From: Candidatus Undinarchaeales archaeon
GTDB lineage: Archaea; Undinarchaeota; Undinarchaeia; Undinarchaeales; JALTGF01
Direction of reading: 5' to 3'
Length of the DNA: 64,000 nucleotides
Assembly: GCA_046483005.1 (NCBI GenBank)
Contig: JAWOEA010000004.1
Location: 23,323 to 87,322, forward strand
The number at the start of each line of letters is the position of its first letter. Positions within the stretch are counted from its first letter, which is position 1. The notes beneath the pieces are model-generated. The model made no database searches and had not been told where the DNA came from. It was given only the letters and a program-made list of their open reading frames with translations. The position numbers were made by a program, and so were the translations under genes. Below are positions 29,610-37,999 of this stretch, piece after piece.

Positions 29610-29897
29610 ATGAGAAGTAAAAAGCCGGCGTGCCACTTCTGCGGAAGTAAAAAAGTTGTCGTTCTGGAGACAGAGCATCCGGAAAACAGACATCCTGGAG
29701 ACAAAAGATGGTCAGAAGTATCCTTAATTGATATTCTCAGATGGGTTAATGATGAAAAGAAGAAAGTTGACGGGAAAGATATAAGCAGACTTGTACCTGA
29801 TTTTGTAAAAAACTGGATGAGGATAGGAGTTAAGTTTGAGCTCTGTCCGGAATGTAAAAGAATTGCAATTTCGCCGATGAAACAAAAGAGGCTTTAG
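29610..29897 (+). CDS. small Zn-ribbon protein
   Basis: CHFCGS...CPECKR, 95 aa. Confidence 0.4.
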   Translation: MRSKKPACHFCGSKKVVVLETEHPENRHPGDKRWSEVSLIDILRWVNDEKKKVDGKDISRLVPDFVKNWMRIGVKFELCPECKRIAISPMKQKRL

Positions 29898-30109
29898 CTT
29901 GTTTCTATTTTGATGCCTTTGCTTTTAAACATCTTTAAATATGCTTTAAATCCTTTCACTTTAGTAGTATCTAACTCAATTAAAAAAGAATATCCTTCTT
30001 GTTCTCCGTTTTTCTTAAAAATTACATCTGTATAAGCCGTCCAGTTTGCAATTGTTCTTAAAAATACAGGAATGGTTTTGTCATTATGGAAACTTATTTT
30101 TAATTTCAT
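29894..30109 (-). CDS. small hypothetical protein
   Basis: 71 aa with no motif. Confidence 0.25.
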   Translation of the reverse strand: MKLKISFHNDKTIPVFLRTIANWTAYTDVIFKKNGEQEGYSFLIELDTTKVKGFKAYLKMFKSKGIKIETS

Positions 30110-30265: not shown

Positions 30266-30553
30266 ATGGCTGATGTAAAATTTGAAACTCTTAAAGCTGA
30301 GATAGTCGACTTCGGCAACAACAATTTCATTGAAGTTGCAAGAAAGAAAGCTATCACTTCTGATGGATCAAATGAATTTCTTGCAGTAAGCAGAGGCTTC
30401 TATGCACCTGACGGAAGCAAGAGATTCAAGAAAAGCTTCACCATTCCGGATGACGACAAAGTAATTAACTTTATCGTAGACAAGCTTCCAGGAATGCACC
30501 AGGCCGGCGGAGAATCTGCCGAAGAAGACGAATCAGAAGAAAAAGAAGAGTAA
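30266..30553 (+). CDS. small protein with possible PC4/YdbC-like ssDNA-binding fold and acidic tail
   Basis: FLAVSRGFYAPDGSKRFKKSFTIPDDD parallels the PC4 C-terminal domain pattern (hxhxR-aromatic-xxP-DG-K-KK-hslhP). SD-like ggagg lies 10 bp upstream. It ends in EEDESEEKEE. Confidence 0.3.
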   Translation: MADVKFETLKAEIVDFGNNNFIEVARKKAITSDGSNEFLAVSRGFYAPDGSKRFKKSFTIPDDDKVINFIVDKLPGMHQAGGESAEEDESEEKEE

Positions 30554-30675
30554 AAGAAAATAGAGAAATAAGGAAAAGGCGTGGAGCGGAGATGCAGCTG
30601 CGATGAAGGCGTTAAAACTCTAATTAAAATAACTTGCAGTTAAATAGGGACTAATTTTTGCTTTTTAAATTTTTA

Positions 30676-30929
30676 TCAATTTTTATCCCATACTGGGAAT
30701 CCTAAAATTTTCACTTCAATGCCATGGCTTTCTAATTTATCTACAAAGGTTTCAATTGAGTCATTGTCCCCTTTCAATGTACAGATAAGCTCATTGGACG
30801 TTATTGAATAGTCAGTAAGATTCAATTTATCTATTTTGGAATTAACACTTTGATTTTGTCTTCATATTTATCCCAAAATTTAGAATAATCTTTAATTTTC
30901 TTGCTTGTCAGTTTAATTCTGCGTTCCAT
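30676..30929 (-). pseudogene. frameshifted third paralog of the small-protein family 30982..31494 / 31567..31794
   Basis: Frame A reads MERRIKLTSKKIKDYSKFWDKYEDKIKVLIPK and then stops. Reading frame B from the A-run continues ...NQSVNSKIDKLNLTDYSITSNELICTLKGDNDSIETFVDKLESHGIEVKILGF, which aligns with the C-terminal motif of both paralogs. The same promoter repeat lies upstream. Confidence 0.5.
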
Positions 30930-30943
30930 TTCATTAAATGAGT

Positions 30944-31006
30944 TATTAAATTGAGATATAAATCTTACGGGAGACTAATTTTTATAATTTATATACTTCA
31001 AATCCT
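30944..31006. repeat. 63-bp direct repeat, copy 1 (about 88% identical to 31504..31566); contains the TATA box tttatatctcaat (minus strand) for the downstream paralog
   Basis: gttattaaattgagatataaatcttacgggagactaatttttataatttatatacttcaaatcc. It overlaps the last 8 codons of gene 30982..31494. Confidence 0.7.
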
Positions 31007-31494
31007 TTTTCTTTTAAGAAATCAGCGAGCTTTTCGATGTTCTCGGCTGTTCCTTTAAACATTATGGAACCCATAGAGGATTGACTATACTCAATTCCTT
31101 TTAAATCTAAATTAGGTGACATGGACAGTAAATCAATATATAATGAAGACAGCTCCGACTTTGGAATTTTTTTGTCTAAAACTTCGGATATTTTTTCTTC
31201 CGAAAGATTTTTGATGAGTATATTAAAAGTGGGCCTGTATTCTTCCTCTGAAATATGTTCAAATAATATCTTAAATGCCTCTTTCTTTGATATCCTTTCA
31301 ATTAAAAATGTAAGCAGTATATCTTTTGATTTTTCTGATAAATTTTCAAATAAAGAGAATATTAACTTGTTTGATAACAGTTTGAAGGCATTGGAATCTT
31401 CTTTTTTAATTTCTTCAGAAAGATTTTTTATAATTTTTTTAATAGAATCTTTAGATTCCGGCGGTTTTACCATTAATCGGCTTTTTCTGACCAT
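30982..31494 (-). CDS. hypothetical protein: helical N-terminal domain plus C-terminal small alpha/beta domain shared with 31567..31794
   Basis: The C-terminus QSSMGSIMFKGTAENIEKLADFLKEKGFEV aligns with DSGPIECDFKGKKSHIEKALTELKELGFEI. The start is placed at MVRKS, 27 bp downstream of the TATA. The first 23 codons of the ORF-track model are encoded by the repeat and promoter. Confidence 0.5.
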   Translation of the reverse strand: MVRKSRLMVKPPESKDSIKKIIKNLSEEIKKEDSNAFKLLSNKLIFSLFENLSEKSKDILLTFLIERISKKEAFKILFEHISEEEYRPTFNILIKNLSEEKISEVLDKKIPKSELSSLYIDLLSMSPNLDLKGIEYSQSSMGSIMFKGTAENIEKLADFLKEKGFEVYKL

Positions 31495-31503
31495 ATATGA
31501 TAA

Positions 31504-31566
31504 GTTATTAAATTGAAATATAAATCTTACGGGAGAACAATTTTTATAATTTATGTGCTTCAAACC
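31504..31566. repeat. 63-bp direct repeat, copy 2; contains promoter and a relic C-terminus (FEAHKL-stop) in another frame
   Basis: gttattaaattgaaatataaatcttacgggagaacaatttttataatttatgtgcttcaaacc. A partial third copy (aattgaaatataaa) lies at 31811..31824, about 20 bp upstream of the ATG of 31567..31794. Confidence 0.7.
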
Positions 31567-31794
31567 TTACTTCTTGATATCTACTATTTCAAAACCCAAT
31601 TCTTTTAATTCAGTCAATGCTTTTTCGATATGACTCTTTTTCCCTTTAAAATCGCACTCGATTGGACCAGAATCACGAGGATCTGAATTGCCGCCTACTA
31701 AATTCCAATCACAAGCTAACTTATAAAGAACATTTTCAATCAGTATGCTTTTATGAGGGGGCTTAATGAATGCTTTGTAAGTTTTCTCACTCAT
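31567..31794 (-). CDS. small protein (75 aa), possibly a GlnB/PII-like or ferredoxin-like beta-alpha-beta fold; tandem paralog
   Basis: MSEKTYKAFIKPPHKSILIENVLYKLAC... The beta-alpha-beta pattern is reminiscent of the PII N-terminus. The ORF-track 5' extension to 31926 is upstream DNA. Confidence 0.4.
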   Translation of the reverse strand: MSEKTYKAFIKPPHKSILIENVLYKLACDWNLVGGNSDPRDSGPIECDFKGKKSHIEKALTELKELGFEIVDIKK

Positions 31795-31873
31795 ATTAAT
31801 TATATCAATTAATTGAAATATAAACCTTTTTGAAAAAGTAAAAATACTACCCAAAATAAAGAAAAAGAGTAAA

Positions 31874-32734
31874 ATGAAAAAATTTGCCGGTTTAATAGAC
31901 CAATTCTCAGACTTTGAAAAAAGCAAGATTGTAATAGCTCAGGCTCCGTATGCCGGAACAGTTAGTTATGGAAAAGGAGCAGAACTTGGACCGGAAGCAA
32001 TTATTGAGGCATCAAAACATCTGGAACTTTTTGATTTGGAGCTTGAAAAAAATTTTGCAGGGGAGCTCGGAATTCATTCATTGAAGCCGTACAAACTTCC
32101 TGAAAAACCGAAATATGCAGTTGAATCTATGTACAAGGAAACTAAAAAATTACTTGAAAAAGATAAATTCGTCATAACTCTTGGTGGAGAGCATACTGTT
32201 TCAGTTGGAGCAGTAAAAGCATATTCAGAAAAATTTGATGATTTATCTGTACTTTATTTAGATGCTCATGCAGACTTAAGAAATGAATTTGAAGGGCAGA
32301 AATACAGCCATGCATGTACATTAAGAAGAATTTCAGAATTCAATAAAAGCTTTGTTCATGTCGGATGCAGGTCTCTGTGTGAGGAAGGTTATGGTAAAAT
32401 TAAAGAAAAGAACTATAACTTCATATGGATGCAGGAAATCAAAGAGAAGGGCTCTCAGATTGGAAAGATTTTGTCTGGATTGCAGGAGAACGTGTATGTA
32501 AGCATAGACATAGATGTTTTAGATCCGGCAGTTATGCCTTCAACAGGAACTCCTGAGTCGGGAGGAATGAACTGGTATGAAATTACTGAAATTTTAAAAG
32601 AAGTTGGCAAGAAAAAGAACATTGTCGGCTTTGATTTGGTTGAACTTGCTCCAAAAGAAGGACTTAAAGCTCCTGATTTTACAGCAGCAAAATTAGTATA
32701 CAAACTACTAGGATACTCCTTGGTTCAGAAATAA
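31874..32734 (+). CDS. speB: agmatinase/arginase-family ureohydrolase
   Basis: The Mn-binding motifs GGEHTVS, DAHADLR and SIDIDVLDP are present. Confidence 0.8.
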   Translation: MKKFAGLIDQFSDFEKSKIVIAQAPYAGTVSYGKGAELGPEAIIEASKHLELFDLELEKNFAGELGIHSLKPYKLPEKPKYAVESMYKETKKLLEKDKFVITLGGEHTVSVGAVKAYSEKFDDLSVLYLDAHADLRNEFEGQKYSHACTLRRISEFNKSFVHVGCRSLCEEGYGKIKEKNYNFIWMQEIKEKGSQIGKILSGLQENVYVSIDIDVLDPAVMPSTGTPESGGMNWYEITEILKEVGKKKNIVGFDLVELAPKEGLKAPDFTAAKLVYKLLGYSLVQK

Positions 32735-36809: not shown

Positions 36810-37403
36810 CTACAGAGTTAAAATATATTTAAAAAAGGCGTATCCAAATGTTGTAAAATAAAAATAATTCACTGTTAAACCAATAAATTCTGATACAAAT
36901 AACTTAATCCAAGGAATTGGAGCCATTTTCTTTGCTATGAAGCCTCTCATAGTATCCCAAACCAATATAGACGCCATTCCTAAAAGAATGAAAGTTGAAT
37001 GGGAGATGTTTGTTCCATATATTCCAAGCAAATGCCTTGTTGTCAAAGTTAAACCTGTTAAAACAATCATATGAGTTACAGCTCCGTTAAATTCATCCGG
37101 TCTTAATTTAATTACAATAAGCATGCAGAGTACAAATAAAGGAATTGTAAAGACGATTCCAAAAACATAAGCATAAACAAACGTTAGGAAATAAAAGCAT
37201 TCAACTCCCATTTTCCAGGAATCGGTTTTTCTTGTTATTAACATTGCAATTAAAGACAGAAACCATATGAATCCTACTTTGAAGTAATACCAGAGAAAAT
37301 TGAAGGCGAGAATAGACAAAACTATTAAAATGACTACACCGATGCCGATTGCAATTGGGCCCGTATGTATGTCAACTTTAAGTTTTTTCTTTTTGTTTTT
37401 CAT
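36810..37403 (-). CDS. polytopic membrane protein, tandem paralog A
   Basis: The shared motifs DSWKMG, FTFVYAYVF and IKLRPDEFNGAVTHMIVLTG are also found in the neighbouring gene. Confidence 0.45.
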   Translation of the reverse strand: MKNKKKKLKVDIHTGPIAIGIGVVILIVLSILAFNFLWYYFKVGFIWFLSLIAMLITRKTDSWKMGVECFYFLTFVYAYVFGIVFTIPLFVLCMLIVIKLRPDEFNGAVTHMIVLTGLTLTTRHLLGIYGTNISHSTFILLGMASILVWDTMRGFIAKKMAPIPWIKLFVSEFIGLTVNYFYFTTFGYAFFKYILTL

Positions 37404-37999
37404 AGTAAATTCATGAAAAAGTTTAGAATTTTATAACCGAAAAGAGTTATTATAAAATAATTGATTATAAACTCAAGAGTATGATTTATAACTAATTTTG
37501 GAAGTGGGACAGGGGCCGTTTTCAGGGCTATAATTGTATCGCCTATGAACCATACGACAAGTGTAAATAATGCTGCAAATACGAATTCTGATTGAGATAT
37601 TCCTAAGCCGTAGAGAGAAAAGAAAAACCTTGCTGTTAAAGCTGTTCCCGTTAAAACAATTGAATGGACAAAAGCGCCGCTTCCTTCATCCGGTCTTATT
37701 TTGACTACTATCAAAAGCGCAGTGTACAGAAGAGGGAGAACAAAAAACAAATCAAAAAGATATGCATAAATAAAAGTGAATAAATAGAAAACCTCAAGCC
37801 CCATCTTCCAGGAATCCGGAAGCCTCATTAAAATAAAAAAACCAAGTGAAAGGAACCAAATTGCTAAAATTTTGAAAAACTGAGCAACATAGAAAATACC
37901 TACGAAGGTTGCAAGTAATAAAACTGCAAATCCGGCTACTAATAGAAATAAATTGTTTTTTGATTTAAAAAAATTTGAGAAAATAGTTTTAGTATTCAT
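37400..37999 (-). CDS. polytopic membrane protein, tandem paralog B
   Basis: It reads DSWKMG ... FTFIYAYLF ... VKIRPDEGSGAFVHSIVLTG. It overlaps paralog A by 4 nt. Confidence 0.45.
   Translation of the reverse strand: MNTKTIFSNFFKSKNNLFLLVAGFAVLLLATFVGIFYVAQFFKILAIWFLSLGFFILMRLPDSWKMGLEVFYLFTFIYAYLFDLFFVLPLLYTALLIVVKIRPDEGSGAFVHSIVLTGTALTARFFFSLYGLGISQSEFVFAALFTLVVWFIGDTIIALKTAPVPLPKLVINHTLEFIINYFIITLFGYKILNFFMNLL

Follow-up and report, generated by a model that had tools for sequence, protein, structure and literature searches.

The window considered here, a stretch of 64 kb of DNA from a metagenome-assembled genome (MAG) of Candidatus Undinarchaeales (DPANN), contains on its minus strand, between 30676 and 31828, a tandem array of three short open reading frames (ORFs) that are adjacent, co-oriented and joined by repeated junctions, and that are referred to below as genes 1, 2 and 3 (Table 1). 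The coordinates that an initial annotation of the sequence had given for genes 1 and 2 agree with the ORF list. Gene 3 is broken by a change of frame and its NCBI annotation is just a TTG-started ORF of 49 amino acids (aa), R6U26_00740 (30676..30825, minus strand); the public annotation can be corrected here, as R6U26_00740 is a fragment of a gene of ~84 aa. Long ORFs also run antisense to gene 2, both in the window (31121..31516, plus strand, 131 aa) and in the relative L001 (8590..9093, plus strand, 167 aa). In all likelihood these are a side effect of the abundance of K and E codons in the coding strand, and the minus strand is supported as the coding strand of gene 2 by the promoter spacing and by the start of its ortholog. 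The relatives with which the window was compared are L001, L005, L007 and L008, the syntenic contigs having been fetched with the adjacent agmatinase gene as an anchor; L001 is the same organism as the GTDB contig L010, a Candidatus Undinarchaeota MAG.

Table 1. Features of the three-gene array and its surroundings, and the content of the corresponding slot in relatives. Positions are in nucleotides (nt) of the window unless another contig is named; BRE, transcription factor B recognition element.
Feature	Position	Strand	Description
Gene 1 (R6U26_00750)	31567..31794	minus	75 aa; ORF with NCBI name; hypothetical protein
Gene 2 (R6U26_00745)	30982..31494	minus	170 aa; ORF with NCBI name; hypothetical protein
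Gene 3, N-terminal fragment	30831..30929	minus	32 codons and TAG stop; without NCBI annotation
Gene 3, C-terminal frame	30676..30861	minus	open from 30861 down to the stop at 30676
Frame-change zone of gene 3	30834..30861	minus	both frames overlap; contains the A-run 30854..30857
Promoter P1 of gene 1	31811..31828	minus	BRE/TATA core AAGGTTTATATTTCAATT; TATA box 31818..31824, 30 nt before ATG
Block A	31500..31575	minus	last two codons and stop of gene 1, out-of-frame relic, 20-nt spacer, TATA box
Block B	30938..31013	minus	genuine gene-2 3' end KEKGFEVYKL-stop, spacer, TATA box 30956..30962
Partial third spacer copy AAAAATTAGTC	30649..30659	minus	immediately downstream of the gene-3 stop; member of the repeat family
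33-nt element, window	30579..30611	plus	
33-nt element, L001	8311..8343		
33-nt element, L005	635..667		
33-nt element, L008	37..69		
Slot, window (reference)			gene 1, gene 2, frameshifted gene 3
Slot, L001 (agmatinase 82% identical)		minus	241 aa (unrelated), 171 aa (gene-2 ortholog), 86 aa (intact gene-3 ortholog)
Slot, L005 (agmatinase 71%)			97 aa (helical) overlapping 92 aa (gene-3 type)
Slot, L007 (agmatinase 63%)			empty
Slot, L008 (agmatinase 79%)			88-aa membrane protein directly upstream of agmatinase; contig ends

The two junctions of the array carry a direct repeat of 76 nt (30938-31013 versus 31500-31575), identical at 66 of its 76 positions (87%) and spaced by 562 nt, which is one of three direct repeats of at least 45 nt in the 64 kb, the one with the top identity, and not of low complexity; the pattern of its 35-nt core has 2 matches in the window where 0.00 are expected. 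The initial annotation had recognised this repeat as one of 63 bp and ~88% identity, and whilst the repeat is real its extent is somewhat larger. Read along the coding strand the block consists of the final 11 codons of a gene of the gene-2 type with a stop codon, followed by a spacer of 20 nt, AAAAATT(A/G)(G/T)TCTCCCGTAAGA, and a TATA box within the promoter part, TTTATAT(C/T)TCAATTTAATAACT(C/T)AT. Of the 10 differences between the copies, six lie in the relic part of 21 nt (15/21 identical), and the other 55 nt have four (51/55, 93%). The relic in block A, EVRFEAHKL-stop (31544..31573), begins within the last codons of gene 1, is out of frame with that gene, and aligns in register with the genuine end of gene 2 in block B, so that two earlier claims are borne out, namely that a gene end (FEVYKL-stop versus FEAHKL-stop) survives in an alternative frame and that the repeated unit is a gene end plus a promoter. 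Parts of the block recur elsewhere in the array: the spacer fragment AAAAATTAGTC has only two exact matches in the window, one in block B and one downstream of gene 3, and a repeat search finds a shorter third copy of the promoter part at 31792-31828.

On the opposite strand, the reverse complement of the gene-end part of both blocks (30981..30996 and 31543..31558, plus strand) reads TTTATAATTTAT(A/G)T, a TATA-like box aimed antisense into gene 2 or gene 1, with a T5 run just upstream on the same strand, and antisense transcription from there is conceivable.

It had been noted in the initial annotation that each of the three genes is preceded by the same promoter element about 22 bp from its ATG; the element is indeed present three times, and the distance is approximate only, as the element occupies positions -30 to -18, counted from the ATG, in genes 1 and 2, and positions -33 to -21 in gene 3. 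The motif AAGRTTTATATYTCAATT has three sites in the 64 kb, all of them in the array, and the window holds 3 matches to TTTATATYTCAATT against 0.45 expected and 3 to AAGRTTTATAT against 0.30 expected, a number attained by no shuffle. Each of the three genes has one upstream copy of an 18-nt core, AAG(A/G)TTTATAT(T/C)TCAATT, and the window holds no others. In genes 1 and 2 the sequence TTTATAT follows AAGG or AAGA and begins precisely 30 nt upstream of the ATG, the TATA box of gene 2 (31518..31524) being that of block A.

This geometry is that of archaeal leaderless genes, for which GeneMarkS-2 describes a promoter box ~26 nt from the start (group D; PMC6028130). As in that group, an A/T-rich box is centred ~26-27 nt upstream of the start codons of genes 1 and 2, here with a purine-rich BRE, and the space before the start is too short for a Shine-Dalgarno sequence. 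Across the 72 genes of the window the distances of TTTAWAW from the ATG peak at exactly 30 nt (seven times, with all other distances found at most three times), and because this spacing dominates the window the earlier suggestion of leaderless transcripts is likely to hold for genes 1 and 2. Leaderless transcription is likely, as a reasonable inference from promoter spacing, yet it would be a genome-wide property rather than one peculiar to the array, whose architecture does not differ from the leaderless norm and is ordinary for the organism, special only in the 18-nt identity of its three sites.

Outside the locus, relatives of the array proteins are scarce. Searched by sequence, genes 1 and 2 matched nothing but themselves, and a HMMER profile run against 1.84 billion representative proteins recovered only the three window genes and three repetitive false positives, the L001 orthologs being evidently missing from that set, which limits what a lack of matches there can show. 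Gene 1 has no homolog among those representatives beyond its neighbouring genes and is absent from the syntenic loci of L001 and L005. A scan of genome contigs with the agmatinase alone found nothing, the same scan with the gene-2 alignment found the L001 organism alone, and a scan of metagenomes with gene 2 found nothing. A 71-aa gene at 29894..30109 was considered as a member of the family and rejected on sequence comparison.

The arrangement in the relatives is nevertheless informative. L001 is collinear with the window over ~18 kb and its gene-2 ortholog is 55% identical (E = 3e-60); the stop of this 171-aa gene and the start of the 86-aa gene that follows are 7 nt apart, with no internal promoter and no block between them. 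In L005 the 97-aa and 92-aa genes overlap by 11 nt, again with no internal promoter and no block; the 97-aa protein was considered as a relative of gene 2 and rejected, as similarity was undetectable. Of the family, the copy number of which the initial annotation had proposed to survey in related genomes, L001 has the gene-2 and gene-3 orthologs and L005 a gene of the gene-3 type, with gene 1 found in neither. The conserved 95-aa gene that borders the array served as anchor for 51 metagenome loci of more distant origin, and no family member was seen in any of them (0/51). Given the different genes that each relative holds between this 95-aa gene and agmatinase, and the absence of the family from the distant loci, the slot is hypervariable and the family is confined to a narrow clade of Undinarchaeales, in keeping with the earlier view of the array as part of an accessory region.

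These comparisons also allow the block to be placed in time. Promoter P1 matches the operon promoter of L001 (TTCAAAAAG-TTTATATTCTAATTAGTTGA...) at 81% over 42 nt including the upstream TTCAAAAAG, whereas block A matches it more poorly, at 62% (both hand counts on the alignment), and the agmatinase-side flank GGTAGTATTTT..CTTTTCAA is kept in both the window and L001. The match of P1 together with the conserved flank points to an ancestral arrangement in which agmatinase lay divergently to a promoter followed by gene 2 and gene 3. The copies of the cassette are 87-93% identical, and orthologous genes have diverged at synonymous sites by dS 0.2-1.4, which makes the duplication of the cassette much younger than the split from L001. 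As the genes themselves are only ~35% identical and the sister promoters 62-81%, the block is a far younger patch and not the footprint of the gene duplication, and as blocks are absent from the junctions in L001 and L005 the internal promoter blocks are recent additions in the lineage of the window. That a decaying gene-2 3' end has been carried to a non-coding place likewise marks the block as a copied patch and not the original scar of gene duplication. The claim of three recently amplified paralogs was consequently overstated, in that genes 2 and 3 are old and gene 1 is lineage-specific; it is the promoter block that is recent.

The block was most likely copied by ectopic gene conversion (or template switching), to judge from its position and content. 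Promoter reuse independent of genes has been documented in prokaryotes (Nijveen, Matus-Garcia & van Passel 2012; PMC3575422), and the array shares with those cases a highly similar promoter segment before different genes of one genome and a downstream gene that gains a promoter of its own. It differs from them in being archaeal (BRE/TATA, leaderless), in being strictly local and in carrying a 3' piece of the upstream gene, features that argue for ectopic conversion between neighbouring junctions rather than for a mobile element.

The three proteins share a C-terminal motif, KG-x4-IE(K/T)-x4-L(K/E)(E/S)-x-G(F/I)E(V/I), which had been described before with five residues in the first gap where there are four. 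Their similarity is restricted to the C-terminal 23-48 residues, where identity is ~35% (over 48 aa). BLASTP detects it in the C-terminal region only, with E = 2e-4 (genes 1/2), 2e-3 (genes 1/3) and 4e-3 (genes 2/3), and composition-preserving shuffles of the C-termini give p = 2e-4 to 2.4e-3, so that the similarity on which the suggestion of paralogy had been made to depend is detectable, modest and consistent. When gene 1 was compared with the 792 six-frame ORFs of the window its neighbours were the top two non-self matches, with database-level E = 0.05 and 0.7. Genes 1 and 2 also have a short N-terminal match, (I/V)KPP, with p = 0.009 in shuffles (p = 0.11 for gene 1 against the L001 gene-2 ortholog). 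Comparison by hhalign with the orthologs included gives P = 1e-4 to 4e-3, yet probabilities of 8%, 35% and 55%. An apparent internal duplication in gene 2 (IKNLSEE twice) was rejected as not significant (E = 0.022). Given their adjacency, the shared motif and the same predicted fold elements, the three genes are likely to be paralogous, although this is unproven; the sequence support is moderate and limited to the C-terminal ~25-45 residues, and part of the similarity within the genome may have come from gene conversion.

Folds were predicted for genes 1 and 2 with AF2 from single sequences. Gene 1 is modelled as beta-alpha-beta-beta-alpha-beta, with strands at residues 4-11, 29-32, 45-51 and 69-74 and helices at 19-25 and 53-66, and a mean predicted local distance difference test score (pLDDT) of 74.7. 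The model of gene 2 has a pLDDT of 58.9 overall, with its N-terminal strand (residues 4-10) at 78, its C-terminal beta-beta-alpha-beta unit at 75-84 and its helical insert below 50, and as modelled gene 2 is the gene-1 domain in which ~110 residues take the place of helix 1. Foldseek searches of PDB with gene 1 gave no match at E <= 1e-3, and those above it (E ~4e-3 to 3e-2, template modelling (TM) scores 0.5-0.68) were to ferredoxin-like domains only: MetN NIL/C2, the ACT domain of the acetolactate synthase small subunit, HMA, acylphosphatase, PII-like and MTH889. The best were the MetN C2 domain 6cvl_D (E = 4.3e-3, TMq 0.61, root-mean-square deviation (rmsd) 4.2) and the acetolactate synthase small subunit, 2fgc (TMq 0.63). 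A Foldseek search of BFVD gave nothing significant, and matches of the gene-2 model to Pol I are meaningless (rmsd ~15 Å), as the confidence of that model is low.

Taken together, we consider it probable that the array is a lineage-restricted, fast-evolving cluster of small cytoplasmic ferredoxin-like proteins, derived from an ancestral two-gene operon into which a promoter cassette has been copied. The ancestral state, as it may be read from the two relatives, would have been a single promoter followed by a gene for a helical or helix-inserted protein and then by a gene of the gene-3 type of ~85-92 aa. A short gene 1, probably a reduced duplicate of gene 2, would then have been placed behind the ancestral promoter, and a cassette made up of the last 11 codons of gene 2, the stop, the 20-nt spacer and BRE/TATA would have been copied before genes 2 and 3, by which each gene would have gained its own TATA box at leaderless distance. 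Finally gene 3 would have been hit by a one-base frame change and is probably decaying.

A number of points weigh against this reading. Promoter use, leaderless starts and the splitting of the operon are all inferred from sequence, and the direction and the mechanism of block copying are read from just three genomes. The TATA box of block B may be ill suited to gene 3, since it is 28 nt upstream of an ATG in another frame (30934, with an ORF of 8 codons) and 33 nt upstream of the gene-3 ATG (30929). That gene 1 is probably a reduced copy of gene 2 is argued from the short (I/V)KPP match, and the hhalign probabilities for three-way paralogy are just 8-55%. The C-termini of the gene-2 and gene-3 orthologs of L001 are not significantly alike (p = 0.77, shuffles), and a profile of the motif run against PDB sequences matches de novo designed, idealised beta-alpha-beta proteins alone (E >= 0.016), from which it would appear that the C-terminal motif is a generic helix-Gly-strand unit. 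The fold itself comes from single-sequence models of moderate confidence for gene 1 and low confidence for gene 2.

The alternative that survives best concerns gene 3 alone, and supposes that the gene is intact in the organism, either because the break is a MAG consensus or assembly error or because the tRNA-Lys slips by -1 on A_AAA beside the TAG; we regard this as rather unlikely. It had been claimed that the third copy is interrupted at an A-run, and it is indeed a single gene split by a -1/+2 frame change, whether as a pseudogene or through a sequencing error; exact look-ups of the window proteins put no second assembly of the same strain on record. With one A added to the run at 30854..30857 an ORF of 84 aa is regained, the product of which aligns with the L001 86-aa protein in a single high-scoring segment pair that spans the break (residues 7-74, E = 9e-8), and the N-terminal fragment aligns with the N-terminus of the same protein, so that gene 3 was once a single gene. 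That one base suffices to give a full-length ORF collinear with intact orthologs (86 aa in L001, 92 aa in L005), and that the C-terminal frame is still open for 61 codons, would suit an intact gene, whilst the A-run is only 4 nt long and hence no classic error-prone homopolymer, a mild argument against an error. Gene 3 is also the fastest-evolving gene of the neighbourhood (25% identity, non-synonymous divergence dN 0.83, dS saturated), which speaks for decay, although the orthologs in L001 and L005 are equally diverged from each other and evolutionary speed alone is therefore no proof of it.

The likelihood of a ribosomal -1 slip in gene 3 is low. The sequence at the frame overlap, cca-aaa-tag (30831..30839, minus strand), would let the AAA codon re-pair perfectly in the -1 frame, which is the C-terminal frame (att cca aaa tag being read as tcc aaa ata gat...), but there is no X_XXY_YYZ heptamer, just A_AAA beside the TAG, folding predicts nothing stable downstream of it (z = -0.97 and +0.99), and the orthologs are unsplit, so that recoding would not be conserved. 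Programmed -1 frameshifting in archaea has reportedly been found in fucA1 of Sulfolobus. Gene 3 resembles such cases, and frameshifted pseudogenes, in being split into two overlapping frames at an A-rich stretch, and differs in lacking the slippery heptamer, the stimulatory structure and a conserved split.

A second alternative, which we hold to be unlikely, is that the proteins are not paralogs at all, the C-terminal motif being convergent or spread by conversion of the block, with the promoter block alone homologous. The designed proteins that are the best PDB matches of the motif profile and the low hhalign probabilities would fit such a view, and so would the contrast between the L001 orthologs, which are unlike one another, and the copies in the window, which are alike (p = 2e-4), a pattern that fits concerted evolution. 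It is more difficult to reconcile with the neighbours of gene 1 being its best matches in the window, with a similarity that reaches 33-43 columns upstream of the 11 codons of the block, with the same predicted fold topology in genes 1 and 2, and with the similarity of window gene 3 to the L001 gene-2 ortholog as well (p = 0.0014).

It would seem very unlikely that the 76-nt block has a function of its own, be it as a mobile promoter of the kind of miniature inverted-repeat transposable elements, a small RNA or terminator, or a regulator-binding site under selection. The 93% identity of its non-coding 55 nt, the recurrence of the spacer fragment downstream of gene 3 and the documented reuse of promoters independently of genes (PMC3575422) might suggest as much; against this, there are only two copies in 64 kb, both within the array, and the block is absent from 61 of the 61 fetched loci, loci without family members. 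Terminal inverted repeats and target duplications were not seen by eye, no systematic search for them having been made, and an RNA element in the block is unsupported, with no Rfam match and folding no better than that of shuffled sequences on either strand (z = +0.6 to +1.1).

Equally improbable is the history first proposed, a single recent tandem amplification by unequal crossing-over of a gene + promoter unit with the block as its junction and the third copy as a pseudogene, which the adjacency, the same strand, the common promoter core and C-terminal motif and the block period of one gene-2 unit (562 nt) would suit, but which the comparison of synteny largely refutes, since genes 2 and 3 are already diverged in L001 and gene 3 is present in L005 too, which places the duplication before those splits, neither relative has the block, the gene bodies have no DNA similarity beyond a 24-nt motif and are ~35% identical as proteins where the block is 87-93% identical, and unequal crossing-over among gene-2 units cannot put a promoter before gene 3.

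Returning to the favoured reading of an operon with a copied cassette, the role of its proteins may be considered in the light of the predicted fold. In common with NIL (PF09383; the C2 domain of MetN-type ABC ATPases) and ACT-like domains (ALS_ss_C, PF10369) they have a predicted beta-alpha-beta-beta-alpha-beta topology of ~75 aa and a C-terminal pattern of G-x4-hydrophobic helix-G-strand. They differ from them in a beta1-alpha1 loop that has KPP where these domains have a Gly-containing ligand loop, in profile scores of 12.8-14.8 bits, far under the gathering cut-offs of 23-24, in standing alone, unfused to an ATPase or enzyme, and in the ~110-aa helical insertion that gene 2 has in place of helix 1. 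In the Pfam search NIL scored 14.8 bits for gene 1 (E = 0.026) and 13.4 bits for fused gene 3 (E = 0.074) against a cut-off of 24, with no match for gene 2, and the only ACT-type profile to appear was ALS_ss_C (E = 0.12 for window gene 3 and 0.034 for L001 gene 3), under its cut-off of 23.2 bits; these sub-threshold matches are spread over three different family members. The context is not that of NIL either, the ORFs being stand-alone, of 75-170 aa, and without an adjacent ABC ATPase. From their models the array proteins look like stand-alone ACT/NIL-type modules and they qualify for neither family.

As far as can be judged from the fold alone, they are most likely small dimerising regulatory modules that bind a ligand or a protein. 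That the content of the slot varies so much speaks against the proteins being dedicated regulators of the neighbouring agmatinase. PADLOC gave no matches, those to PHROGs were all of unknown function or spurious (E >= 0.0067), and no relatives were found among viral contigs. Gene 2 has a dN/dS of 0.39 against 0.06-0.17 for housekeeping neighbours and so is under purifying if relaxed selection, as befits a real gene. More tentatively, it is possible that a two-gene operon of a DPANN archaeon has here been rewired quickly by copying of a 76-nt "gene-end + BRE/TATA" cassette, as promoter capture by local conversion independent of any element, and that its orphan ferredoxin-fold mini-proteins, which evolve extremely fast, mark a hot spot of recombination beside a conserved RNA motif that we take to be K-turn-like (the 33-nt element of Table 1), where they might serve host interaction or have a toxin-antitoxin-like activity.

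The array is an orphan instance of a well-known kind, with local duplication of paralogs and promoter, an accessory slot and one frameshifted member. It opens no long-standing question, being a neat if unexceptional duplication of neighbouring genes and promoters where the genome changes fast, of modest interest as an example of promoter copying and for the corrected annotation of R6U26_00740. It does provide a small, sequence-level example of promoter duplication and operon splitting in a leaderless archaeon, and of the turnover of orphan mini-proteins in reduced DPANN genomes.

Several features of the surroundings may be added. The 95-aa protein that borders the slot, R6U26_00735 (30266..30553, plus strand), has no Pfam or PDB sequence match and is highly conserved, being 93% identical to that of L001 and 44-73% identical in the 51 metagenome loci, with an invariant core FGNNNFIEVARK..SRGFYAPDG..RFKKSFTIP and an acidic tail; it looks like a widespread uncharacterised DPANN protein. 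Between its gene and the variable slot, four genomes have a GC-rich element of 33 nt, (G/A)CGTGGAGCGGnnATGyArCTGCrATGAnnrCG, the consensus of which folds into an outer stem, GGA opposite GAUGA(A), and an inner stem GCGG/CUGC, and which presumably resembles a kink-turn (K-turn), the L7Ae-binding motif; no compensatory changes are found among the four genomes, and there is no Rfam match.

The 241-aa gene of L001 (9193..9918, minus strand) has no Pfam, PADLOC, PHROGs or viral match. It appears, on comparison with 31795..31873 of the window, to have been inserted in the divergent promoter region that in the ancestor separated agmatinase from the operon, between the conserved agmatinase-side flank and the promoter, and each edge of the insert has a copy of the repeat ..CTTTTCAA / ..CCCTTCAA. 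In two contigs with a more distant agmatinase (55% identical), L004 (8344..10867) and L009 (93..2662), that gene lies directly downstream of deoxyhypusine synthase, a linkage replaced by the variable slot in the clade of the window, and in L004 a pyruvoyl arginine decarboxylase gene precedes the pair. Elsewhere in the window, the adjacent genes at 36810..37403 and 37400..37999 (minus strand; 197 and 199 aa) form a tandem paralog pair that is conserved in L001 and shares an 89-nt stretch of 71% identity (37030-37118 versus 37623-37711).

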